A stretch of DNA of 53,453 bases from Escherichia virus TH37. The stretch lies in the sequence record MT446409.1; one strand, written 5' to 3'. Below the pieces are notes generated by a model. It saw only the letters and a program-made list of their open reading frames with translations. It searched no databases and was not told the DNA's origin. The stretch's first letter is position 1, and each line of letters starts with the position of its first letter. Position numbers and translations under genes: made by a program. Shown here one piece after another: positions 1 to 53,453 of this stretch.

Positions 1-543
1 AGATATTGAGTACCAGAATATTGAGCATCTAAGCAAAAGCCTAAACGAGTATCGCATTCACCCGTTGTCTCAACCTTTAACCAATCCAAAGCCAGACGAA
101 CATAAGTGAATGGCGTAGAAGGACGTTCAGCTTTAGGCATGTTCATCATGCGAGCAAGTGAACCAGCTGGATTCTGAGCAACATAAGTTAAACGCTTAGC
201 AGAAGTCCAGTCTCCACCGGAAATATCTTCCAGCTCTGCCATAAACATGTTGTATGCAATGGTAGTAGAACCATCTTCGTTAAACTTCTTAACGATGTTC
301 TCAACATTGTGAGAATACAAGCAACGAGCAAAGTCAGATGATTGTGGGTTAGGACCAGCACATGCTACATGGTACAGACGACCACGGTTATCAGCAAAGT
401 AGTCAGAGAACAGAGTGTCCTGACCAACCATTGCTACAGCATTGTTCCAAACATGGAGTTCAGTCTGGATTGCTTCTGGCATCTGCAAGCCACCATAAGT
501 ACGTTGTTCAATCATAGACTGGATGATGCGAACCATCTCAGTC
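1..543. repeat. Direct repeat of window end 52911-53453 (wrap-around of circular or terminally redundant genome)
   Basis: Positions 115-543 identical to 53025-53453; positions 1-114 differ at about 11 sites from 52911-53024. Confidence 0.9.
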
Positions 544-1217
544 TCCACATGGTACTCAGTATCTTGCAGGAATTCGATTGCAGCTTTCAGAGTCTTGGAT
601 GGCTTAACTTTGCCACCTTTAACGAAAGGCTTGCGACGAGATTCAGTTGTTACACGCTCAGTGAATGGAACTGAGGTATCTTTGGTTGTAACCAGTTCAA
701 CCCATGCGTCAGTCATCTGGAACGATTTGTCCTCGTTCATGGTGATGAAGCCAAAGTGCTTAGCTAAACCAATGAGGTTGATAGCTGGGTCAACATAGTG
801 CATTGACTTTAAGTCGTTGTTGTAACGGTTGGCATCAGCAATAGAAGAAGAAGCCAGCTCAACCATTGCAATGGCTGGGACAACATCATCACGAGTGAAT
901 GAGGTCATCATCTTGAAGATTGCGAGAGCAGCAATAGCACAGGTCTGAGGCTGCATATAGTTCTGTTTCTCTTTGGCACGGTATACCAGAGCCGTGATAG
1001 CAGGGACAACGGATTTGATAGTTTGAGTTGAGATAGTTGTCATTTTGCGAGTCTCCAAGTTAGTTTCGGTTTTAGTTTCGGATTGTGTAGCAGCAGTGAT
1101 TTCGTTAACCATTTGGTTGCAACGGTCCATCGTATCAAGCACGTCTTTCCAACCGTGGCCTTCTTCTTTTAAGCGAGCGCCATCAGCAGCCAGTGCACGA
1201 TATTCTTCATTAGTCAT
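1..1217 (-). CDS. T7-like single-subunit RNA polymerase, N-terminal part (gene runs off the window start; continues at 52013-53453 if the genome is circular)
   Basis: Minus-strand frame open from 1289 to 1; contains ...FADNRGRLYHVACAGPNPQ matching T7 RNAP FPYNMDWRGRVYAV; ATG at 1217 has GGAGA 5 nt upstream (alternative ATG at 1044); motif A-like LDAQYSGTQYL at window edge. Confidence 0.8.
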   Translation of the reverse strand, partial: MTNEEYRALAADGARLKEEGHGWKDVLDTMDRCNQMVNEITAATQSETKTETNLETRKMTTISTQTIKSVVPAITALVYRAKEKQNYMQPQTCAIAALAIFKMMTSFTRDDVVPAIAMVELASSSIADANRYNNDLKSMHYVDPAINLIGLAKHFGFITMNEDKSFQMTDAWVELVTTKDTSVPFTERVTTESRRKPFVKGGKVKPSKTLKAAIEFLQDTEYHVETEMVRIIQSMIEQRTYGGLQMPEAIQTELHVWNNAVAMVGQDTLFSDYFADNRGRLYHVACAGPNPQSSDFARCLYSHNVENIVKKFNEDGSTTIAYNMFMAELEDISGGDWTSAKRLTYVAQNPAGSLARMMNMPKAERPSTPFTYVRLALDWLKVETTGECDTRLGFCLDAQYSGTQY

Positions 1218-1279: not shown

Positions 1280-1295
1280 TCACAACCAACTAATG
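1280..1295 (-). promoter_or_regulatory. Conserved phage promoter-like motif (gene-sense CATTAGTTGGTTGTGA), copy 1, 63 nt upstream of RNAP start
   Basis: One of 8 intergenic copies of a 16-mer, plus-strand consensus TCACATCCAACTAATG, all in the same orientation. Confidence 0.5.
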
Positions 1296-1824
1296 GTGAG
1301 ACTAGCTCATTACAACAGCGTGCTCTGATTGCCCTTGACCTTGACCCACTACCTAACTTGGTGTTGTTTGAAAGCCGATAGGCTGTAGAAAAAGTTGGGG
1401 TAGGGACCGTATTTAAGTCCGATAGGACGTTGGGCTTCCCCTCCCCGCCACCTCAAAAATAAAAAATAATATTAGGCGAACAAAGTGAGCAATTGCCACA
1501 ATTCTAGTCTCATTAATATTGTAGCAATTCGAGTCTCATTAATTCCGTAACAATATTTAAATTAAAAAAAAATTATATAAAAATTTTTATAACATAGTCG
1601 GACTTCTGTTCGAACAAATTCCGGCTAGATACAGCTGACCGACCATTTACCATTTGGTTTTGAACTTTACGCATTCCTAATATTACTCTAATATTGTAGC
1701 AATATTGGGAATAAGTAATATTGAAAACTTACTTATTTTATTCTAGCTCAAAGAGAAACGACGCTAACGCATCGAATCTCTTCTCACATATTAACTGACA
1801 AACGTCAGCCTTCACCATATCCAA

Positions 1825-2943
1825 TCATAATTCAAATCCACCCAGAGCATTGGTATCAACTTCGGAGTCAATTTGCCCAACCAGGTAGGAACTAATCTCC
1901 GTTTCCTGTGGAGCAACTTGTACAGCATCCGAATTCAACCATGCGTTAATCCATGGAATAGGATTCGTAGCACCTTTGAATGGGGCATCCAATCCAACTG
2001 CTTGCATACGAATATTCGTGATATATTCGACATATCCGCACAGAATTTGCTTGTTTAAGCCAATCATGGAGCCATCTTTGAACAGATAATCGGCCCAATC
2101 TTTCTCTTGTTGGGCAGCATCTTCGAACAATTTCTGGCATTCTTCGCGGCATTCTTGGGCAATTTCACCCATTTCTGGGTCATCTTTGCCACTCACCAGG
2201 ATATTCAACATGTGCTGAGTTCCAGTCAAATGGAGTGCTTCATCTCGTGCAATCAGTCGAATAATCTTGGCATTTCCTTCCATTAACTTGCGTTCAGCGA
2301 AGGCAAATGAGCAAGCAAAGCTAACATAGAAGCGAATTGCTTCAAGTGCGTTGATAGACATGAGGCATAAATAGAGCTTCTTCTTCAACTCACGAAGACT
2401 GATTTCATGACCAGCATGGTTCCCTTCTCCGAACAACTGCCATAATGCGGTTAGTTCTTGAAGCTCGTCATAATATTGGGAGATGCCAATTGCTCGTGCT
2501 TTGATATGCTCGTTAGTTACGATTTCATCAAAGATAATGCTTGGGTCTGTAACAATATTACGAATGATGTGGGTGTAAGAACGTGAATGGATAGTCTCGG
2601 AGAAAGACCAAGTTTCAATCCAAGTTTCAAGCTCAGGAATGCTCACAATTGGAAGCAAAACTGTGTTCGGTCCACGTCCTTGAATTGAGTCCAGAAGGAT
2701 TTGATATCGCAAATTACTGGTGAAAATGTGCTGTTCGTTTGCTGGAAGCTTCTGGTAATCAATACGGTCTTGTGAAACATCTACCTCTTCCGGTCTCCAG
2801 AAGAACGACAATTGTTTCTCAATCAACTTCTCAAATATGCCATACTTCTGCTGGTCATAGCGAGCAACGTTGACGTTCTGACCAAAGAACATTGGTTCTA
2901 ATAATTGGTTATTCTTGGTTTGTGAAAAGGTAGTGTAAGACAT
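1825..2943 (-). CDS. nrdB: Ribonucleotide reductase class Ia beta subunit (NrdB)
   Basis: 372 aa collinear with and near-identical to E. coli NrdB as recalled ([14 protein letters not shown]..., ...[21 protein letters not shown]). Confidence 0.95.
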
Positions 2944-13670: not shown

Positions 13671-16600
13671 TTATCTACGTTCCATTGCACCATTACCCAT
13701 GTTGATTGTTTGGGTAACAGTTTGACCGTTAGGAGTTGACACGGTTGCAGACGCTTGCTTGTTGTTCACAGTAGCTTTGACTTCAACGTTAACTACAGTG
13801 GCCTGGGTCTGACCATAAGACAGTCCATTTCTGGTGAAGCCAGTTGCACCTTCCGCAATAGAATCGCCCTGAGAAGCCCATTCACGGTACTTCTTGACGC
13901 GGTTCTGTGCCTGTAGAGGAACAGCATTGAGCCAGTCGGTTCCGTGTTTGTTGATAGCATCATCAACAGTTCCAGCACCATCCGTATACGCCGCCATAGC
14001 CTTCTCAGCGTCACCATTATAACGCTTGAGCATTGCATCGTAGTAGTCACGACCAACGCGAGCACGCTCTTCCAGAGAGTTATCACGGGCAGGTGTAACG
14101 CCAAATCCTGGGTCACGGGAAGTTGAATCAAGAACTTGCATACGACCTTTAGCACCAGTCGGTGATGTGACTACCGAACCGTCTGCGTTCAAATCGCGGT
14201 TCCCTGACTCTTCTCCTGCGATAAAGTCATAAACATTACGTTCTGCATCGGCTGCACCGTTGGAGGTCATACGCATCACTCTGGCTGCGTCACCGCCTGC
14301 CTCAATAAAGGTGCTGCCGTATGAGATTGCAGCTTGCGGAACAGCGTAACCAGGCAATACCCCAGCACGCTCCGTCTGCGCGATTCCTAGCTGTGCAACG
14401 CCTTCGGCATAGTTTGAGTCGGCCCCACGCTGAACGTTCTCCTGAGCCTCGCCCATGCTGTATTCTGTGCGGTCATAGGCACGAGCCATGCCGTCCAGTC
14501 CAGCCATTTGCATAGCGCCAGCGATACGCGCCTGACTCCAGCCCCGTTCCTGACCACGTTCACGCATTACCCGCGCTAAGGTCACAGGGTCGCCCTGTGC
14601 CTGCCTAATGTCGCCAATGGTGATAAGGCCACGGGTTCCCTGAACAATGTTCACAGCGCCGCTGGGGTCGCCATTTAGGAGGGTGTTATAGGCACTATGT
14701 GTGGTTTGATTCAGTCGGTTGGCTTGCTGGGAATTAAGTCCTAACATCTCCATGCCCTGTGACATAGAAGAGTATTCGTTAGGATTATTTACACCAGCAT
14801 CTAACGAATTGCCATAGAAGTCGTTCAGACCTTCCAGAGCTTCGTTACCAATTTGGGTAGCACCAATAGCCATACCAGCGACACGACCCCACGGAGTCAT
14901 CATCATGGCATTCATAGCGCCATTGGATAAAGAGCCAATACTGCCACCAGCTACGCCAGCAGCTAATGCCCCACCCATGCGACCGAAGTCATCGCCAAAA
15001 CTGCCACCAGCTTGCCACCCACGACGCCCACCACCGCCACCAGAACCACCACCGCTAATGCCATAGCTACTAGCATCAATGTTGTCCCAGAAGCCGCCTG
15101 AGCGCCCACCGTCGCCACCGCCGAAATCTGCATCCTGACCACGGAGCTTGTTTTCTTCCTGTGCTGCGAGGATACCTTTCTTAACTGACACTGCCATCAG
15201 GTCATTGCCAGTTGTGCTATCAGCGCCAACAGCAGAGGCTGTAGCAGCACCAACTCCAGCATCGGTACGGTTGCCTATGAATGGGTCATCAGGTGTGCCA
15301 GCAGCAGGAGAGTAGCCACGATTTGACCTCTGCTTAACATCCTTCCACAGGCCGTCACCAGTCATGGCAGCACGAGCACCCTTGATTAAATCATCATTGG
15401 ACAAGTCTGGATTAGCTTCAACAAACTCTCGACCAGCATTAAGACGACCAATAACAGAATCAATCTTATCTTTGTTGCGGTCGTACCATCCTTCATCCTT
15501 GTCAATCCACTCCGACTTCGTGGTATCGCCGATGGTTTGAGAAAACAATGCGCGCGAACGACCAGATACAAGCATCCCAAATTGAATTTGGTCCATGTAA
15601 TCTTTATGGTCACCCGCAGATAAGTTGGCAAACTTGCCAGCCCTTTGAGGGTTCTTGTGTTCCCAAATCGCGTCATCGCCGATAAGACCATCTGGGGAAT
15701 ACATGAACGACGGATAATTGTCATTTGTAATTGCGCCAGCTTGCTCAATGTCGAATCCAAATTCTTTGGCTACACGGTTACGAGCAATTTCTTCAGTTCG
15801 GTGACCAGCTTCGAACATTCTTTGGGTAAATTCGCTTGGTCCTTTTCCGCGTTGCAGGCCAACTTTATCAACCATTGCAGCCCAAGGTCTGGTATATTCG
15901 TTGTTGCCAAGGAATGAACCAACAGTTGAGCCTGTAATGTCATATTGTTTACGGAAGTCTAACCACTCCTGAGTACCCTGTTCCATATTATGAAACTTGA
16001 TTGGGCCTTGTTGTGGTTCAGGCTGAGGAACAGCGGAATCCAGGTTTGCGATTGCAATGCTCTCACGACGAGAGCGAGCAGAGTTCCAACTCGTTGGTGA
16101 ATCAAGCTGTGCAATAAACTCTGTAGATGGATTTAATTCAACAGGTCCAGTGTTTCTTAGACGTTCAGCAGGGTCGAAAGTCTTACTGATTTCAGCTTCA
16201 TTATATTGGTGAGCATTCTCAAGTACACCACGAATAGATGCACCAGAGTAACGAGGGTCATCACCAATATCTTTCTTTAGGTTGTCATAACCAGAACGAG
16301 CATCTGCAAGGTCTGTATAACGAGATGCAGAATCAAGAATCAAATCTCGGTCAGAAGATTGAGTGCGATATGCGTTCATCCCCCGTTCTGAACCACCAGC
16401 ATATACCTTAGCAGCAGATTTAACTACGCCAGATACATCTTGATATAAAGATTTACTTGCATCAGACCAACCTGGGGAGCCAGATAATGATGCAGATAAA
16501 GAATATTCAGCTTTAATGCCAGAACCCATAGAGCCTAAAGGTAGGCCAGATGCGTTAAGCGGTTGTCGGGGATGTTGAATATCACCAACAATAGATTCAG

Positions 16601-17345
16601 AACCAAGTTGAGGAAGAGAATCCATGTATGAAACTCTTGGCCCCGACTTATTACCTACATTCATTGCAGATACAGCAGCAACTTCACGGAAGTTTTGCGG
16701 CAATTCTGATTCTAAACGTTTGGCTACACGATAAACATCTCGTGCATAGCGGTCTGGGTCGTCATATTGTTGACGGTCAACATACATATGAGCAAGATAG
16801 CCCATAGATTTGGCAATATCTCCACGGTTTGTAGAGTATTCACCCATAATGTCACCAGCGTAATGACCAGGAAGTTCCGGCATTATATCTTGATGACCTG
16901 CCAGCGTATCACGCATGTACGCATTAAGCATTCCCCAATGACCTTCTGGTTTGTTTGGGTTTGCTTTAGGCATGTGCATCCACACATCATCGGTGGATAC
17001 ACCTAATTTCTCCATGTAGGCATGAACAGCTTCTACATGGTGACTTGGACCGTTCATTGCAGCATGGAATGTTTCAGTAAGCCCAGCACCAGAAATCATC
17101 TGTGCAACGTGAGCTGAGTCTGAAATCATGTCGGAAGTGCCATAAGAGATGCCATCATCTTCTGTATAGGTTTCTTCCATAAGCTGTGAATTTGTTTCCA
17201 TCCAACCAGAGGCAGCACTTGATTCAAGTTGCTGTGCCATATCTCGTTTGCGCATACCTGGATTGAATGACAGACCATATTGAGCACCTAAGCCAATCAA
17301 TTCGGCTTCGGACATTCTCATTAAATCTTTTATGTTATTAGCCAT
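13671..17345 (-). CDS. Tape-measure-like large tail protein with internal lambda-Exo/YqaJ nuclease domain, Gly-rich segment and C-terminal lytic transglycosylase domain
   Basis: 1224 aa between GT chaperone and baseplate genes; residues ~450-640 QGTQEWLDFRKQYDITGSTVGS...SPDGLIGDDAIWEHKNP...YMDQIQFGMLVSG collinear with lambda Exo; residues ~1040-1130 EESGNRDL...GAKGRMQV SLT-like. Confidence 0.6.
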   Translation of the reverse strand: MANNIKDLMRMSEAELIGLGAQYGLSFNPGMRKRDMAQQLESSAASGWMETNSQLMEETYTEDDGISYGTSDMISDSAHVAQMISGAGLTETFHAAMNGPSHHVEAVHAYMEKLGVSTDDVWMHMPKANPNKPEGHWGMLNAYMRDTLAGHQDIMPELPGHYAGDIMGEYSTNRGDIAKSMGYLAHMYVDRQQYDDPDRYARDVYRVAKRLESELPQNFREVAAVSAMNVGNKSGPRVSYMDSLPQLGSESIVGDIQHPRQPLNASGLPLGSMGSGIKAEYSLSASLSGSPGWSDASKSLYQDVSGVVKSAAKVYAGGSERGMNAYRTQSSDRDLILDSASRYTDLADARSGYDNLKKDIGDDPRYSGASIRGVLENAHQYNEAEISKTFDPAERLRNTGPVELNPSTEFIAQLDSPTSWNSARSRRESIAIANLDSAVPQPEPQQGPIKFHNMEQGTQEWLDFRKQYDITGSTVGSFLGNNEYTRPWAAMVDKVGLQRGKGPSEFTQRMFEAGHRTEEIARNRVAKEFGFDIEQAGAITNDNYPSFMYSPDGLIGDDAIWEHKNPQRAGKFANLSAGDHKDYMDQIQFGMLVSGRSRALFSQTIGDTTKSEWIDKDEGWYDRNKDKIDSVIGRLNAGREFVEANPDLSNDDLIKGARAAMTGDGLWKDVKQRSNRGYSPAAGTPDDPFIGNRTDAGVGAATASAVGADSTTGNDLMAVSVKKGILAAQEENKLRGQDADFGGGDGGRSGGFWDNIDASSYGISGGGSGGGGGRRGWQAGGSFGDDFGRMGGALAAGVAGGSIGSLSNGAMNAMMMTPWGRVAGMAIGATQIGNEALEGLNDFYGNSLDAGVNNPNEYSSMSQGMEMLGLNSQQANRLNQTTHSAYNTLLNGDPSGAVNIVQGTRGLITIGDIRQAQGDPVTLARVMRERGQERGWSQARIAGAMQMAGLDGMARAYDRTEYSMGEAQENVQRGADSNYAEGVAQLGIAQTERAGVLPGYAVPQAAISYGSTFIEAGGDAARVMRMTSNGAADAERNVYDFIAGEESGNRDLNADGSVVTSPTGAKGRMQVLDSTSRDPGFGVTPARDNSLEERARVGRDYYDAMLKRYNGDAEKAMAAYTDGAGTVDDAINKHGTDWLNAVPLQAQNRVKKYREWASQGDSIAEGATGFTRNGLSYGQTQATVVNVEVKATVNNKQASATVSTPNGQTVTQTINMGNGAMERR

Positions 17346-26055: not shown

Positions 26056-28091
26056 GCCGAGTAGTTGGCACTTGGGCCTGAGAATTCGATTGCAACCATA
26101 TCTGAAACGTTATCGACACAATCGTCGTGTCCAGTACCACTACCCAAAGAAGTGAATCCAAGTATTTCACGTCTAACGTGGTCAATGTGTTCATGACCAG
26201 CAGGGAAGAATATCCTCTTTTGGGAGAAATATGGGATTGCGTTAAGGAATCGAGTTACCTTGTCATTACCGTTAATGCCATCACGAGGCAGTGGTAAAAC
26301 TCGGACACTCCCATCTCTAATAAATTGTTGGTTTAAGAATTGTCCAGCAGACTTATCTTCCATGTACAAAGCACGAGGAATACAGCCTACAGATTTCAAA
26401 TCCAACTTGTTGCATTTGTTCCAGAAGTCGATGATAGCAGTCTTGAGTTCTGGAGTTTCAAACTTGCCGAGCATGATATCTAAACAATATACATCACGCT
26501 CTTTAGTCACGCCCCAATGCTTAAGGACCGAATAGTCAGAATAAGACTTGGCAGTTGATGCCGTGTCAGCAGTGATGAAACTTCTAACTATGCGACTTCT
26601 GTCGAAAGCGTCTGGCTCATACTCTTGCCACCAATCTTCTTTAACAAGGCCATGACCTTGAGCAGATGGGTCGCCAGCATACTGTGAATTGTATGTGTAT
26701 GGGTTCGACTCTTTCATTGCCTCCAGAGATTCTAAACTCTTACGTGAAGGCCACAATGCAGACTTCTCTTCTTTCCTGTTCAAATCATAGAGAATAGGGA
26801 TAGCATGAGTGTAGTTCTGCTTCTTAATTAATTTGTCGTACCACTGAGCACTGCCAACACCTTTCTCAATAATCGCTGGGATATTGAGATAATGGTATTT
26901 ATCGGAGGAACCACCACGGAGTATATAACCAACTAAATCTTGGTCATGAACTCGCTGCATGATGATAACCATTGGAGTACGTGAGCACTTGATTTGGTTT
27001 CCACGCGAATCGGTTATGCACCCATCATTGGCAAGACGGGACATAAAGGTGTTATCAAATCGGTCGTTGATTTCTGCTCGAACTGTGTCGGAGTAGGCAT
27101 CCTTCGGCTTGATAACGTCATCCACCACAAAGCAACCAGAGTAGTTTGCAACGAGAAGTCCAGCACCTTTACCAGTCAGCTTACCGCCAGTAGGTACTGC
27201 GTGCATAACTCCAGCTTTGGTCGTACCCCAGCGTTCAAGAGAACGTTTGTTTGGGTCGATTCTCACCTTCGGGAATATACGTTGGAACAGTGGGTCCATC
27301 ATCACAGCACGAATGTAACCACTCGATTCAAGAACAACGTCTTCTGCATACGAGGTGATAATGTTATGGCTTGATTCATTGTGGCAAAATGAATACAAGG
27401 GCAATGCAATACTCATAAGCTGGGTCTTAGAGTGTCGTGGGGGAATGGTCACTATTAAGCGGTCAATCTCGCCATCAACAACCTTCTGGCCAACACTGAA
27501 TATTACATCGTGAAAGTCTTGTGCTTGAAATGGAAATCCCATCTGAATATGGAACTGCCATTTACCAAAGGCTTCGAAACTTTTCATCAAGATTTTGCGA
27601 ACACGTTCTGCAACCTTGGCAGGGATTACAGTTGGGTCCACGTTATGTGGGTCATGCAGAATCTTGTCTACAAGTTCGTCGGTGTTATCATGTTCCGAGT
27701 TTGGCTCCTCCAATGTGGAACCTGCAACACGGTCAGTAACACCTGCTTGAATACCTTTCTTCAACTCGTCGGCATACGCAGTCGAGTCTTTCTTGTCGCC
27801 AGAGCGAAGACGCTCAAGTTGTGCTCTGAAAACGGAACGCAATACAGCATCGTTTTCAAGACCCTGGCCTTCTAACTCTGCTTGAATTTGTTCTTCATAG
27901 CTGTCAACTATCGCAGAGTTTTCTGAAATATATCGACGGAGCAATGGCAAAGATAGAATGCAGAATCTTTCTCTTGAGACTTTTAAAACGTCACCGTAGT
28001 GTTTGGCCAGATACGTGGCAATAGTATCGTCAAACTCGGGTCCAAGATTTTCAGTCTTTGACATTGATTCGTTCTCTTTGGTTTTAATCAC
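26046..28091 (-). CDS. Terminase large subunit
   Basis: 681 aa; deviant Walker A (PPRHSKTQ), Walker B-like CFVVDD, C-terminal acidic nuclease-like region; precedes portal. Confidence 0.6.
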   Translation of the reverse strand: MIKTKENESMSKTENLGPEFDDTIATYLAKHYGDVLKVSRERFCILSLPLLRRYISENSAIVDSYEEQIQAELEGQGLENDAVLRSVFRAQLERLRSGDKKDSTAYADELKKGIQAGVTDRVAGSTLEEPNSEHDNTDELVDKILHDPHNVDPTVIPAKVAERVRKILMKSFEAFGKWQFHIQMGFPFQAQDFHDVIFSVGQKVVDGEIDRLIVTIPPRHSKTQLMSIALPLYSFCHNESSHNIITSYAEDVVLESSGYIRAVMMDPLFQRIFPKVRIDPNKRSLERWGTTKAGVMHAVPTGGKLTGKGAGLLVANYSGCFVVDDVIKPKDAYSDTVRAEINDRFDNTFMSRLANDGCITDSRGNQIKCSRTPMVIIMQRVHDQDLVGYILRGGSSDKYHYLNIPAIIEKGVGSAQWYDKLIKKQNYTHAIPILYDLNRKEEKSALWPSRKSLESLEAMKESNPYTYNSQYAGDPSAQGHGLVKEDWWQEYEPDAFDRSRIVRSFITADTASTAKSYSDYSVLKHWGVTKERDVYCLDIMLGKFETPELKTAIIDFWNKCNKLDLKSVGCIPRALYMEDKSAGQFLNQQFIRDGSVRVLPLPRDGINGNDKVTRFLNAIPYFSQKRIFFPAGHEHIDHVRREILGFTSLGSGTGHDDCVDNVSDMVAIEFSGPSANYSAWM

Positions 28092-28269
28092 AATCCACTA
28101 ATGGCTGAGTTTGCACGGGATTGATGCGAATGATGTTGCCCAAACTAGAATCGGCCTTTAAATACAGGCGGTTTAGTGGCATGTATGAATCACAGATAGG
28201 ACATTGTTGGGTGATGAAATCATCCTCTGCCACTTCATAATGGCAGTTACTACATTGAATTGTGCGCAT
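28084..28269 (-). CDS. Small zinc-ribbon protein
   Basis: 61 aa with CSNC...CPIC. Confidence 0.35.
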   Translation of the reverse strand: MRTIQCSNCHYEVAEDDFITQQCPICDSYMPLNRLYLKADSSLGNIIRINPVQTQPLVDCD

Positions 28270-33413: not shown

Positions 33414-33686
33414 TTAATCCACTTGCAACATTGCAAGGCGGAAGTCATATCCAACTAATGCTTCGGACAGCTCTTCAATTGAAGTTGTTGCCGAGATTAA
33501 AGTTTGGAGGTTTTTGAATGTCTCATCGTTAAATGCTTGAGACTGTGGGTCAGACGAAGCGAACACCTCGCCCTTAATCTTTTCAAGGAACGCCATTACG
33601 GCGTCCTTTGCTGGAACTTCGGAATCAGCAGCAAACATATGGTGCTCTAATTCCTGCATATCGAAAATAGAATATACAGTTTGCAT
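33414..33686 (-). CDS. Hypothetical protein
   Basis: 90 aa co-oriented ORF. Confidence 0.3.
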   Translation of the reverse strand: MQTVYSIFDMQELEHHMFAADSEVPAKDAVMAFLEKIKGEVFASSDPQSQAFNDETFKNLQTLISATTSIEELSEALVGYDFRLAMLQVD

Positions 33687-41068: not shown

Positions 41069-41084
41069 TCACATCCAATTAATG
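41069..41084 (-). promoter_or_regulatory. Conserved phage promoter-like motif, copy 2
   Basis: Plus TCACATCCAATTAATG. Confidence 0.5.
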
Positions 41085-43237: not shown

Positions 43238-43253
43238 TCAATTCCAACTAATG
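43238..43253 (-). promoter_or_regulatory. Conserved phage promoter-like motif, copy 3
   Basis: Plus TCAATTCCAACTAATG. Confidence 0.45.
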
Positions 43254-43378: not shown

Positions 43379-43394
43379 TCAAATCCCACTAATG
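43379..43394 (-). promoter_or_regulatory. Conserved phage promoter-like motif, copy 4
   Basis: Plus TCAAATCCCACTAATG. Confidence 0.45.
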
Positions 43395-47315: not shown

Positions 47316-47331
47316 TCACATCCAACTAATT
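47316..47331 (-). promoter_or_regulatory. Conserved phage promoter-like motif, copy 5
   Basis: Plus TCACATCCAACTAATT. Confidence 0.5.
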
Positions 47332-47831: not shown

Positions 47832-47847
47832 TCACATTCAACTAATG
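47832..47847 (-). promoter_or_regulatory. Conserved phage promoter-like motif, copy 6
   Basis: Plus TCACATTCAACTAATG, ~15 nt upstream of macrodomain gene SD. Confidence 0.5.
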
Positions 47848-50489: not shown

Positions 50490-50750
50490 TTAGAATCCCT
50501 CATTATATCCAGCAGTGTTACGAAGAGTCACTTCAACATCTTCGTCATCAGGAATTAATTCGACTTCAATATTGACAACAATATTGTCACTAAAAGTACA
50601 TGCTTTACTTGAATCAAAGAACTTTACAGCATTATATTTATCTGATTCATCTACTTTAATCCACTTCACAGAACGAACAGTGAAGATTTGACCATCTTGT
50701 AGGTCTTTGAAACAAGCAGCTTTAATCACAGTATCCATTTTATTCTCCAA
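50490..50750 (-). CDS. Hypothetical acidic protein (first gene of early array)
   Basis: 86 aa. Confidence 0.35.
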   Translation of the reverse strand: MENKMDTVIKAACFKDLQDGQIFTVRSVKWIKVDESDKYNAVKFFDSSKACTFSDNIVVNIEVELIPDDEDVEVTLRNTAGYNEGF

Positions 50751-50761
50751 AGTTAAAAGAA

Positions 50762-50827
50762 AACTCCCTACAGAACGGTTGTGGAGGTCTTGTATTACCT
50801 TAATCCACCTTAAAGTTGTAGGGAGTT
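50762..50827. repeat. Perfect 11-bp inverted repeat flanking a 44-nt spacer
   Basis: AACTCCCTACA at 50762-50772 and TGTAGGGAGTT at 50817-50827. Confidence 0.6.
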
Positions 50828-51029
50828 ATATAGTATTCCTGTGTGTGCCGCCATCATGGACTTCCTAGTCTGGTGGGCGCGTTGCAATCCAGCAATAAAC
50901 CACACGTTTTTCACAGGCTATATATGTGACACATAAAGTGCCGAAAACTACAATGATTAGCTTGGAGACATAATCTCTCTAAAATCTGTCACAGAATTTC
51001 AGCAGAATTTACAGAGATTTGGTCTTATT

Positions 51030-51045
51030 CACATGCAACTAATGA
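51030..51045 (-). promoter_or_regulatory. Conserved phage promoter-like motif, copy 7
   Basis: Plus TCACATGCAACTAATG. Confidence 0.5.
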
Positions 51046-51229
51046 TAAATGGACATGCTTAATTGCAACCAATTCATCTGCCAAATAGACGAATTTAGTC
51101 ACAATCAAACATGCTCATTAATTACAGGTTTGCTCCTATCTTGGAATGTATTTGGCACATCAAGAAGTGGCGCAATAGGTACGGAAAACCGACCATGTAC
51201 AGCATAATAAAACTAATTAAATAAAGGGT

Positions 51230-51950
51230 TTTATCCCAATATTGTCACAATATTTACATGCGATGATAAAGCCTTCGCTTGGCTGGAAGCCAGTATTCAT
51301 GCGGGTTGCAAGAATATTGGGTGAATATTGATACATTTATTACATGCGAAATTGGCACAAATACTGTTACAAAATTAACATGCCAGATTGGTAGACGATT
51401 GTATCTTCGAGGTGATTAGTCCTCTAACAATTCTGCCACATTCTAACATGCCAATTTGTAGCAATATTTACATGCCATACTGTAGCAATATTGCCACAAT
51501 ATTTGTTGCTCAAAATCGGGGCGGCTTCTGCGTGAAAACGAGAGGCTTTGCTCCGACTCTTCTCTTCTTTCGAATTCTGATTGAAAGAAAGAAGCATGTC
51601 CAAAAGTTCCAATATTACAAAAGTTATCTCCCGGCTTGTGGGTGGGCCTTTATAATAGGAGATGAAGCAATATTGTCGCAATTGAACATGCTTTAGTTGA
51701 AGAACAGTTTCGAATGATAATCCTACTTCACACATGGTTGCTGGAACTTTGTCCGGCCAAAGACAGGGAGTTCAATGATTGCCACATCATTACAACGCTG
51801 TGTGTTTAGTTGACATGCTGAAATGTTTCTAGAATGATTTCAACATGACATGCGGAAGACTTCTCCGTATTCTGTTACTTCACATCCAACTAATGTCGAA
51901 TATTGAAACAATATTACATGCAGCAATATTGCTTGAATATTGGGAATTAA
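51230..51950. repeat. Dense array of short repeats (palindromic CAATATTG / GCAATATTGC and TTACATGC units) in non-coding region
   Basis: About 12 ACATGC copies and at least 10 AATATTG copies within ~900 bp. Confidence 0.6.
51881..51896 (-). promoter_or_regulatory. Conserved phage promoter-like motif, copy 8
   Basis: Plus TCACATCCAACTAATG (consensus copy). Confidence 0.5.
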
Positions 51951-52012
51951 AGGATTTAATTAATAAAGAATAAAGAAAGGGCCATCACCTTTCGATGACA
52001 GCCCTGTTTCTC

Positions 52013-53453
52013 TTATTGACAGAAGTAGTAAGCGTGTTCGCTCATCAGAAGCTCTTCAGTAACAATGTTCTCATGGTACATGTTGATGCCACCAAGTTGC
52101 TTAGACAGAGATTCAAACTGATTATTGTGAACAAAGATTTCAACATAAGCAGAACGAATTACTTCCATCATTTTAGGAGCATCAGCTAAGCAGCAACGGA
52201 AACAATCGTGAATTGAAGTAAAGCCACGAAGACCAGCTTCTTTAGCTTTGACTGCAACAGTACGAGCAACCAATGCGTCAATACCTTGAATGTAGTTAAC
52301 AACGAAGGTACGCTTGAATTCTTCTTTAGTTGGGTTGGACTCACGAATGGTCCAAGGCTTATTCTCCTGAATCTGACCAAAGATAACACGAGTTTGAGAG
52401 TCAACACGAATGCTGAATGCCTCACAGATTTCACGAGATGGGAAGCAAGGCTTCATTACAACCTGACCATCAGTGTGACGATATGTGATGTACTCTTTAC
52501 CAAGTTCAACACAACGATTGTATGCAGCATCAGCAGCTTTCTCGATGAACATGTTAATCTTAGCACCCAATGCGTTATGGATTGCTTCTACACAAAGTTC
52601 AGCAAATGCTTCTGCTTTCTCAACAGGAATCTGGAGAGATGCTGTCATGTATGCAATGAAGTCAGAAGAACCAGTTAATGCAGCTTTACCACCACCATAT
52701 TGGATAGCCATGTATGGAGTTTTGATAAACTTACGACCAGCTTTCGGATTCAAGAATTCATCCATGATTTCAGCAGATGGTTTCATTGAAGAACGGTCAA
52801 GCAACTTCAACAGTTCACGAAGAGATAACTGGTATGGGTCAGATGCTTTAGTTGATGAATCAACCAGACCTGTTGCACGAGCCATCTCCATGTTACCAGC
52901 AATGAATGCCAGATATTGAGTACCAGAACATTTAGCATCTAAGCCAAAGCCTACACGAGAATCGCATTCACCTGTAGTCTCAAACTTGAACCAATCCAGA
53001 GCCAGACGAACATAAGTGAATGGCTTAGAAGGACGTTCAGCTTTAGGCATGTTCATCATGCGAGCAAGTGAACCAGCTGGATTCTGAGCAACATAAGTTA
53101 AACGCTTAGCAGAAGTCCAGTCTCCACCGGAAATATCTTCCAGCTCTGCCATAAACATGTTGTATGCAATGGTAGTAGAACCATCTTCGTTAAACTTCTT
53201 AACGATGTTCTCAACATTGTGAGAATACAAGCAACGAGCAAAGTCAGATGATTGTGGGTTAGGACCAGCACATGCTACATGGTACAGACGACCACGGTTA
53301 TCAGCAAAGTAGTCAGAGAACAGAGTGTCCTGACCAACCATTGCTACAGCATTGTTCCAAACATGGAGTTCAGTCTGGATTGCTTCTGGCATCTGCAAGC
53401 CACCATAAGTACGTTGTTCAATCATAGACTGGATGATGCGAACCATCTCAGTC
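52013..53453 (-). CDS. T7-like single-subunit RNA polymerase, C-terminal part (N-terminus beyond the window end; matches 1-1217 across the repeat)
   Basis: DNRGRLYHV, motif A-like GLDAKCSGTQYLAF, motif B-like KTPYMAIQYGGGK, motif C IHDCFRCC collinear with T7 RNAP DWRGRVYAV / DGSCSGIQHF / MTLAYGS / IHDSFGT. Confidence 0.85.
   Translation of the reverse strand, partial: TEMVRIIQSMIEQRTYGGLQMPEAIQTELHVWNNAVAMVGQDTLFSDYFADNRGRLYHVACAGPNPQSSDFARCLYSHNVENIVKKFNEDGSTTIAYNMFMAELEDISGGDWTSAKRLTYVAQNPAGSLARMMNMPKAERPSKPFTYVRLALDWFKFETTGECDSRVGFGLDAKCSGTQYLAFIAGNMEMARATGLVDSSTKASDPYQLSLRELLKLLDRSSMKPSAEIMDEFLNPKAGRKFIKTPYMAIQYGGGKAALTGSSDFIAYMTASLQIPVEKAEAFAELCVEAIHNALGAKINMFIEKAADAAYNRCVELGKEYITYRHTDGQVVMKPCFPSREICEAFSIRVDSQTRVIFGQIQENKPWTIRESNPTKEEFKRTFVVNYIQGIDALVARTVAVKAKEAGLRGFTSIHDCFRCCLADAPKMMEVIRSAYVEIFVHNNQFESLSKQLGGINMYHENIVTEELLMSEHAYYFCQ

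Follow-up and report, generated by a model that had tools for sequence, protein, structure and literature searches.

What separates the last late gene from the first early gene in Escherichia virus TH37, and does a physical end of the genome lie there? The window, that is, the whole stretch of DNA analysed here (sequence record MT446409.1, 53,453 nucleotides), holds an AT-rich interval between nrdB and an RNA polymerase (RNAP) gene. A first-pass annotation had delimited this interval as 1296-1824 and proposed it as a candidate genome end or early control region of the T7 kind.

By nucleotide similarity, the source genome is a Carltongylesvirus of the family Chaseviridae, a phiEcoM-GJ1-like coliphage of the myovirus type with a T7-like RNA polymerase. 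It is 77-88% identical to carltongylesviruses in the junction region and 91-93% identical in the replication and terminase genes (nucleotide search), and with at most about 93% identity to any record searched it represents a separate species. Gene order agrees with this placement (nrdB, non-coding region and T7-like RNAP on one strand, together with nucleotide homology to Carltongylesvirus), and every long ORF of the window lies on the minus strand, referred to below as the gene strand. Another carltongylesvirus by sequence, 80-95% identical to the TH37 genome, is deposited as "Staphylococcus phage Pel53" (PP952070, host Staphylococcus hyicus), a host label that looks doubtful. Base composition of the window changes locally at 14001-16000, where G+C rises to 0.49-0.54 against about 0.44 genome-wide and GC skew is strongly negative, both within a 1,224-aa ORF (13671-17345).

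The two extremes of the window, 1-543 and 52911-53453, are 98% identical and both come from one segment of the RNAP gene. The 11 substitutions between them are clustered in 19-115 / 52929-53025, and 8 of the 11 alter an amino acid. Since the differences are concentrated at one end and are mostly non-synonymous, the 52911-53453 copy looks like an overlap of contig ends, one of them of poor quality, and not like a biological repeat. With the 543-bp overlap removed, 52,910 bp of unique sequence remain and the RNAP gene runs from 1217 down to 1 and then from 52910 down to 52013, encoding 704 amino acids; an RNAP of 885 aa is an artefact of joining the contig ends with the overlap kept. The locus is framed by the following elements:

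1-1217, minus strand (ATG at 1215-1217): 5' part of the T7-like RNA polymerase gene, from the ORF list
1825-2943, minus strand: nrdB, final gene of the late/lysis block, with its stop codon adjoining the interval (ORF list; ribonucleotide reductase small subunit in the annotation of relatives)
51978-52005, minus strand: strong intrinsic terminator (12-bp stem plus T-tract) directly 3' of the RNAP gene, an annotated terminator in SA91KD

The first 58 residues of the polymerase (window 1044-1217) form an N-terminal extension common to the window, TH33, 2KOFFS, Bp10, JL1 and Mangalitsa. PYps23T, flopper, MLP1 and BSBP01 are devoid of it, their RNAP ATG corresponding to window position 1043.

Because the RNAP ATG is found at 1217 and not near 1296, the non-coding gap is 1218-1824. 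The first-pass annotation was right in taking the stretch as non-coding and wrong in its limits, and the left edge that it chose (1296) narrowly excludes a conserved motif at 1280-1294. All ORFs overlapping the interval are of 38 aa or less. A small ORF annotated here in relatives does not represent a conserved gene, because the relatives read it in two different frames owing to a 1-nt indel; its ends also vary, and the DNA around the frame switch is still more than 93% identical among them. A conserved gene for a small protein is in this way ruled out. Neither tRNAs nor known RNA families were detected in the window. The best Rfam match in 1200-1900 is weak (21 bits against a threshold of 100), and a candidate small RNA between 1690 and 1556 was rejected, as it folds no better than shuffled sequences (z = -1.0).

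The duplicated units that had been described in the interval are present as claimed: AGTCTCATTAAT and TAATATTGTAGCAAT both occur twice, the latter exactly. The copies of AGTCTCATTAAT belong to two tandem 26-nt units (1492-1517 and 1518-1543, 85% identical), and those of TAATATTGTAGCAAT, a 15-mer, lie at 1514-1528 and 1689-1703. The poly-A/T runs are likewise there (a T9 run and an A/T tract at about 1556-1600), and the proposed kinship to the CAATATT repeats at 51230-51950 is borne out by an excess of CAATATT and of the palindrome that it forms. In the CCAATATT-type statistics, CAATATT has 42 copies in the whole genome against 10.1 expected, 6 of them in 1515-1723 and 19 in 50567-51942, and AATATTG-N3-CAATATT has 11 against 0.54. 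Perfect copies of the palindrome are found at 1690-1706, 51238-51254, 51487-51503 and 51899-51915, and an ATTG-N3-CA core is common to the units. From nrdB towards the RNAP gene, the interval contains:

1751-1809, minus strand: two hairpins 3' of nrdB (1809-1794 and 1782-1751), from a terminator scan and folding
1690-1706, no strand: operator-like, perfect 17-bp palindrome AATATTG-TAG-CAATATT, invariant in 11 carltongylesviruses
1627-1644, minus strand: TCGGTCAGCTGTATC unit in single copy, mostly present in two copies 36 nt apart in relatives
1556-1600, no strand: tract of A and T only, including a T9 run on the gene strand, found in all relatives with variable length
1492-1543, minus strand: two tandem 26-bp units, ATTAATGAGACTmGAATTGnnnCAAT, at 71-122 bp from the predicted left end (1421, see below) on its outer side

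The block around the palindrome (1636-1744) is 93.6% conserved, against 88% for the coding end of nrdB. The repeats and the conservation are real, and the interval is non-coding and functionally dense.

At the nrdB side, a stable, G+C-containing hairpin followed by a T-rich tract, as in an intrinsic terminator, is found at 1751-1809. The second hairpin has the inner stem CGATGC-GTTA-GCGTCG and is followed by TTTCTCTTT, with a terminator-like site at 1774-1759; the fold reaches -13.1 kcal/mol (z = -4.4), and 0 of 200 shuffles were as good. Y2 and Myduc have a similarly stable hairpin after the last gene (-20 to -24 kcal/mol as RNA), with other stem sequences. The hairpins are probably a terminator or a 3'-end stabiliser of the late transcript, and they appear to mark the end of the late transcription unit.

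The genome end was placed by comparison with relatives. Chasevirus genomes are linear, terminally redundant and not permuted, and have long terminal repeats (ICTV profile, PMC12842549); long direct terminal repeats (DTRs) are found across the Chaseviridae (PMC12842549, PMC8762354, PMC6753284, PMC9699118, PMC6872899). In the relatives examined, these repeats measure 2,339-3,234 bp and the RNAP gene is inside them. The left ends of six relatives, belonging to five genera, were located in their sequence records, and all fall no more than 6 nt apart in the block CCTATCGGAC/TTAAATACGGTCCC. Three of the six (Mangalitsa, Myduc and 4HA13) had been mapped from reads. The ends are the following, with a caret at the terminus:

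Y2: repeat of 2,608 bp, in the record; left end CCTGTCG^GACTTAATAATACGG
JL1: repeat of 2,995 bp, in the record; left end CCTAT^CGGACTTAAATACGG
Mangalitsa: repeat of 3,234 bp, by PhageTerm (PMC6753284); left end TCGGAC^TTAAAATACGG
Myduc: repeat of 3,202 bp, by PhageTerm (PMC6872899); left end CCCTAT^CGGGAG
4HA13: repeat of 3,120 bp, by PhageTerm (PMC9699118); left end ^TTAAATACGG
PM1: end taken as the record start; left end ^GGAGATAAATACGG

Positions 1401-1426 of the window carry this end block, identical to the carltongylesvirus consensus, and therefore the first base of the DTR is predicted at 1416-1421 on the minus strand. Conservation in the region peaks in the segment 1356-1430, at a mean pairwise identity of 93.8% against 88% for the 3' end of nrdB. 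The elements related to the predicted ends are:

1401-1426, minus strand: terminus block CCTATCGGAC/TTAAATACGGTCCCTA, assigned by homology to the ends of six relatives, with CCTATCGG inside it at 1419-1426
1373-1384, minus strand: second copy of CCTATCGG, inside AGCCTATCGGCT, 44 nt into the repeat, kept in Y2, Myduc, PM1 and 4HA13
1431-1475, minus strand: T-run and then G-rich box GAGGTGGCGGGGAGGGGAAGCCC, just beyond the predicted end (alignment)
51550-51559, minus strand: predicted right boundary of the DTR, within GAAGAGAAG/AGTCGGAG/C, aligning with the DTR ends of Mangalitsa, JL1, Myduc and 4HA13

A left end at 1416-1421 and a right boundary at 51550-51559 give a predicted DTR of about 2,770 bp, which would span the RNAP gene and its terminator (52005-51978) and run on for about 430 bp more. 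The likeness between the predicted cut sites extends over 5-6 nt only (TCGGAC vs TCGGAG). A common plan of a hairpin plus TCGGAS at both sites was discarded, since the hairpins match shuffled sequences (z = +0.5 to -0.5); at 1431-1475, the fold test against shuffles gave no significant hairpin.

The homology of the terminus block points to the interval being a conserved chasevirus junction region, and we consider it probable that a physical end of the DNA lies here, at the start of the RNAP-bearing repeat. The junction is known biology of the Chaseviridae encountered in another species, and no novel type of element. In this sense, the idea of a candidate genome end gains support from the ends reported for the relatives, while the T7-like picture attached to it has to be abandoned in both size and position. 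The terminal repeat of the relatives is of about 2.3-3.2 kb and includes the whole RNAP gene, instead of being short and followed by early promoters, and most of the interval (1422-1824) would be outside the repeat, at the right end of the unique sequence in the virion.

A fixed end is not the only arrangement that has been proposed in this group. TH37 might package headfuls of circularly permuted DNA, in which case the interval would be no more than a regulatory spacer between genes: the original description of phiEcoM-GJ1 had its DNA circularly permuted, the terminases are similar to headful enzymes of the T1 type (PMC8762354), and a PhageTerm call of this kind exists for Loessnervirus Fifi44. 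However, DTRs shown directly or predicted from reads exist for Y2, PM1, PYps23T, Mangalitsa, Myduc and 4HA13, the JL1 record includes one as well, and the ICTV description of the Chaseviridae as terminally redundant and not permuted (PMC12842549) also makes headful packaging very improbable.

A more specific question is raised by the motif that the left edge at 1296 had excluded. This 15-nt sequence is distributed as follows:

1280-1294, 28088-28102, 33445-33459, 41069-41083, 43238-43252, 43379-43393, 47316-47330, 47832-47846, 51029-51043 and 51880-51894, minus strand: ten copies of the motif C-ATTAGTTGGATGTGA, from a motif scan
1280-1294, minus strand: the copy ATTAGTTGGTTGTGA, 63 nt upstream of the RNAP ATG, also the DTR start if the ends are of the PYps23T type
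51880-51894, minus strand: the copy ATTAGTTGGATGTGA after the RNAP gene, also the DTR end if the ends are of the PYps23T type

The ten copies (with at most 2 mismatches) compare with 0.46 expected and occur on the gene strand only. Coding sequence makes up 91% of the genome; 7 of the copies are intergenic and the remaining 3 fall within the final 37 nt of an ORF, and one copy is immediately upstream of the large terminase gene. CATTAGTTG is the top 9-mer once codon repeats are excluded, with a ratio of 8:0 between strands. The motif is found at homologous positions in PYps23T, Y2 and Myduc and is conserved over three genera; counts on the gene strand and on the other strand are 14:1, 23:6 and 18:2 in three other genomes at loose PWM cut-offs. 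Many copies, all on one strand and placed upstream of genes, are the features of promoters for a single-subunit phage RNAP, and the motif is here regarded as a putative promoter of this class. It was also considered as a -35 element and discarded as a sigma-70 promoter, because no -10 element follows it at any site. The promoter idea is not new, since a prediction from 2008 is already annotated: the SA91KD record (OL960574) labels two copies as "promoter similar to promoter of phiEcoM-GJ1", citing Jamalludeen et al. 2008. The copy at 1280-1294 and nine other TH37 sites match the annotated phiEcoM-GJ1 promoter CGACATTAGTTGGATGTGAA, the former having T for A at position 10. According to the ICTV profile (2022), chasevirus promoters are not identified (PMC12842549), and in the literature searched no mapped transcription starts were found for the motif.

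It is important to note that the ends of PYps23T have been placed at this very motif. Its repeat was determined as 2,339 bp by restriction digests, ligation-PCR and direct sequencing (PMC8762354), and in its record (MW147598; positions 1, 2339 and 52531) the boundaries are ATTAGTTGGA^CGTGAA and ATTAGTTGGA^TGTGAA, both in the 15-nt motif. The window has the motif at both homologous sites, and the equivalents of ATTAGTTGGA^YGTGA put the first base at 1284 (cut after 1285) and the last base at 51885. Should TH37 end in this manner, its repeat would be of 2,310 bp, near the 2,339 bp of PYps23T, the whole of 1296-1824 would be just outside it, and the formation of ends would be tied to sites recognised by the phage RNAP, with a loose parallel in T7. 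The T7 RNAP pauses at the concatemer junction. PYps23T and PYps16N are among the nearest relatives of TH37 by backbone genes, and, in an in silico digest of PYps23T, the 4,814 given by this model comes closer to the published NdeI band of about 4.8 kb than the approximately 5,140 of the consensus end. On the contrary, six other chaseviruses from five genera, three of them read-mapped, end 130-140 bp upstream, and Y2 and Myduc have copies of the motif yet their ends are elsewhere. With MbiI, one extra band of about 1.3 kb was published and only the 2.8 kb band was lost; in silico, the consensus end keeps 1,375 and adds about 1,434, while the end at the motif swaps 1,375 for 1,232 plus 1,107, and the consensus fits at least as well. 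A PCR jump between identical 15-nt motifs could, in addition, have yielded the reported junction. The published restriction bands do not clearly choose between the two end models for PYps23T, and from the ends of the other genera it seems unlikely that those of TH37 are at the motif. Under either model, the end would be inside the interval first described or 12 bp beyond its edge.

If the end is in the terminus block, as preferred here, the tandem 26-bp units stand next to it in the unique sequence. Two copies exist in the genome, only at 1492-1543, and the number varies between 2 and 3 in the aligned relatives. Their place, at the same distance from the end, is taken in Y2 and Myduc by tandem units of 24-25 bp with another sequence. 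Genus-specific units at a constant place fit a site-specific binding protein that co-evolves with them. The 26-bp units are a candidate array of protein-binding sites, with a role in packaging recognition or in regulation. Of these roles, our preferred guess is that they may be a terminase recognition array. Similarly, the palindromes would be protein-binding sites, either for the terminase small subunit or for a regulator.

The latter possibility leads to the second proposal of the first-pass annotation, an early control region. Stated in full, host RNAP would start in the interval, a dimeric regulator would sit on the palindromes and the RNAP gene would be transcribed, a scheme workable only from the right-hand copy of the repeat or from a circularised or concatemeric template. 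A scan of the gene strand for the sigma-70 -35/-10 consensus gave no site in 1000-2000 (3 matches overall against 2.6 expected from shuffles), and the 200-bp leader within the repeat yielded no conserved sigma-70-like promoter; host promoters may thus be active here, albeit with weak support. The cluster of strong sigma-70 promoters that a T7-like genome has upstream of its first early gene was not found by these scans. The early control proposal is left without a consensus site and retains, as a weak point in its favour, one conserved extended -10-like element, TGCTACAAT (1693-1701), on the gene strand and overlapping the perfect palindrome at 1690-1706. The extended -10 pattern TGNTANAAT is scarce genome-wide (5 matches against 10.4 expected), and three of its four gene-strand copies are in the non-coding regions that flank the terminal repeat. 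The recurrence of the palindromes around the early region, the host-type intrinsic terminator that closes the RNAP gene and the very lack of a conserved sigma-70-like promoter in the leader also argue for early control. Against it, the second copy of TGCTACAAT (1518-1526) does not keep the critical -11 A in TH33, MLP1 and JL1, and no regulator gene was found, the first ten early ORFs having no DNA-binding domain by Pfam or PHROGs. Sigma-70 promoters made from the 26-bp units (TTGCTA-15 nt-TAGAAT) were discarded as well, as the spacer lacks the necessary length and the -10 varies among relatives (TCGAAT in JL1). Altogether, a chiefly regulatory interval is conceivable and somewhat doubtful; it is compatible with the junction explanation and does not exclude it.

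The same repeats might also suggest a replication origin, in which iteron-like units stand beside an A+T-rich unwinding tract. The 26-bp repeats and the palindromes do adjoin a 45-bp A+T tract, and the primary origin of T7, composed of phage promoters and an A+T-rich stretch, offers an analogy. The nearest phage-promoter motif is, however, downstream of the A+T tract and not upstream, the cumulative GC skew makes no turn at the interval, and 51000-51950, which lies just after the RNAP gene in a T7-analogous position and has two motif copies and many repeats, is a better candidate, so that an origin in the interval is improbable.

The region beyond the RNAP gene deserves a description of its own. 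About 1.2 kb after the RNAP terminator (50750-51975) is apparently non-coding, its sole long ORF (51424-51735, 103 aa) having no Pfam or PHROG match. The segment 50900-52100 is 94-97% identical to relatives, against 91-93% for the replication genes, and 50750-51975 holds most of the AATATTG-N3-CAATATT palindromes together with GCATGTAAATATTG units; it is a candidate origin or early control region.

Returning to the preferred reading, the junction would separate nrdB, the last late gene, from a long RNAP-bearing direct terminal repeat. Late transcripts would stop at the two hairpins (1809-1751), and beyond them, in gene-strand order, would come the conserved palindrome block (1690-1706), the A+T tract, the 26-bp units (1543-1492) and the terminus block (1426-1401). 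Each unit of the replicating concatemer would contain a single copy of the repeat. During packaging, a cut or nick at the CCTATCGGAC/TTAAATACGGTCCC block and another at 51550-51559 would be accompanied by duplication of the 2.77 kb between them. The virion DNA would then start at 1416-1421 and finish with a second copy of that stretch, provided that the cut site is the one used by the relatives, and the putative phage-RNAP promoter copy (1294-1280), 63 nt upstream of the RNAP ATG, would fall within the repeat. More speculatively, and with little weight given to it here, the locus may belong to a family-wide module that defines the long repeat: the arrays and CCTATCGGAC would direct terminase on the left and the TCGGAG site on the right, the palindromes would act as operators through which host RNAP gains access to the RNAP gene only in its right-hand (or post-circularisation) copy, and some members, such as PYps23T, would have their ends at phage promoters. 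If true, ends of the PYps23T kind at phage promoter copies would couple end formation to the phage RNA polymerase.

For the TH37 record, these results indicate where the sequence should be opened and predict that a stretch of about 2.3-2.8 kb with the RNAP gene in it occurs twice in the virion, a duplication that bears on the genome length, annotation and taxonomy of the record. The terminus block, the adjoining tandem units and the conflicting published ends are concrete test sequences for how long terminal repeats arise in a small and tractable family of coliphages, and hold nothing surprising for specialists in chaseviruses.

Among named systems, the DTRs of the Chaseviridae (Y2, PM1, Mangalitsa, Myduc, 4HA13, JL1 and PYps23T) are the closest to TH37. 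They share with it the gene order nrdB, non-coding region and RNAP, the terminus block, hairpins, palindromes and tandem units, and the location of the RNAP gene in the repeat. TH37 differs in having two and not three 26-bp units, one and not two 36-nt units and a 20-nt insertion at 1476-1495, and its ends are placed by homology. The left end and concatemer junction of T7 are alike in the single-subunit RNAP, the genes on one strand, the terminal repeats and the short repeat arrays beside the repeat. In T7, however, the repeat is of 160 bp, non-coding and followed by strong host promoters, whereas in TH37 a repeat of 2.3-2.8 kb with the RNAP gene is predicted and no consensus host promoters were found; either predicted length, 2,310 or about 2,770 bp, is also far from the short (about 150-250 bp) non-coding terminal repeat of the Autographiviridae type. 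Finally, although the TH37 units are outside the packaged left end, have no sequence similarity to lambda cosB or SPP1 pac and would bind the terminase small subunit only putatively, they resemble both sites in consisting of 2-3 repeated units, unique in the genome and adjoining the predicted cleavage site, at no more than about 120 bp from it.
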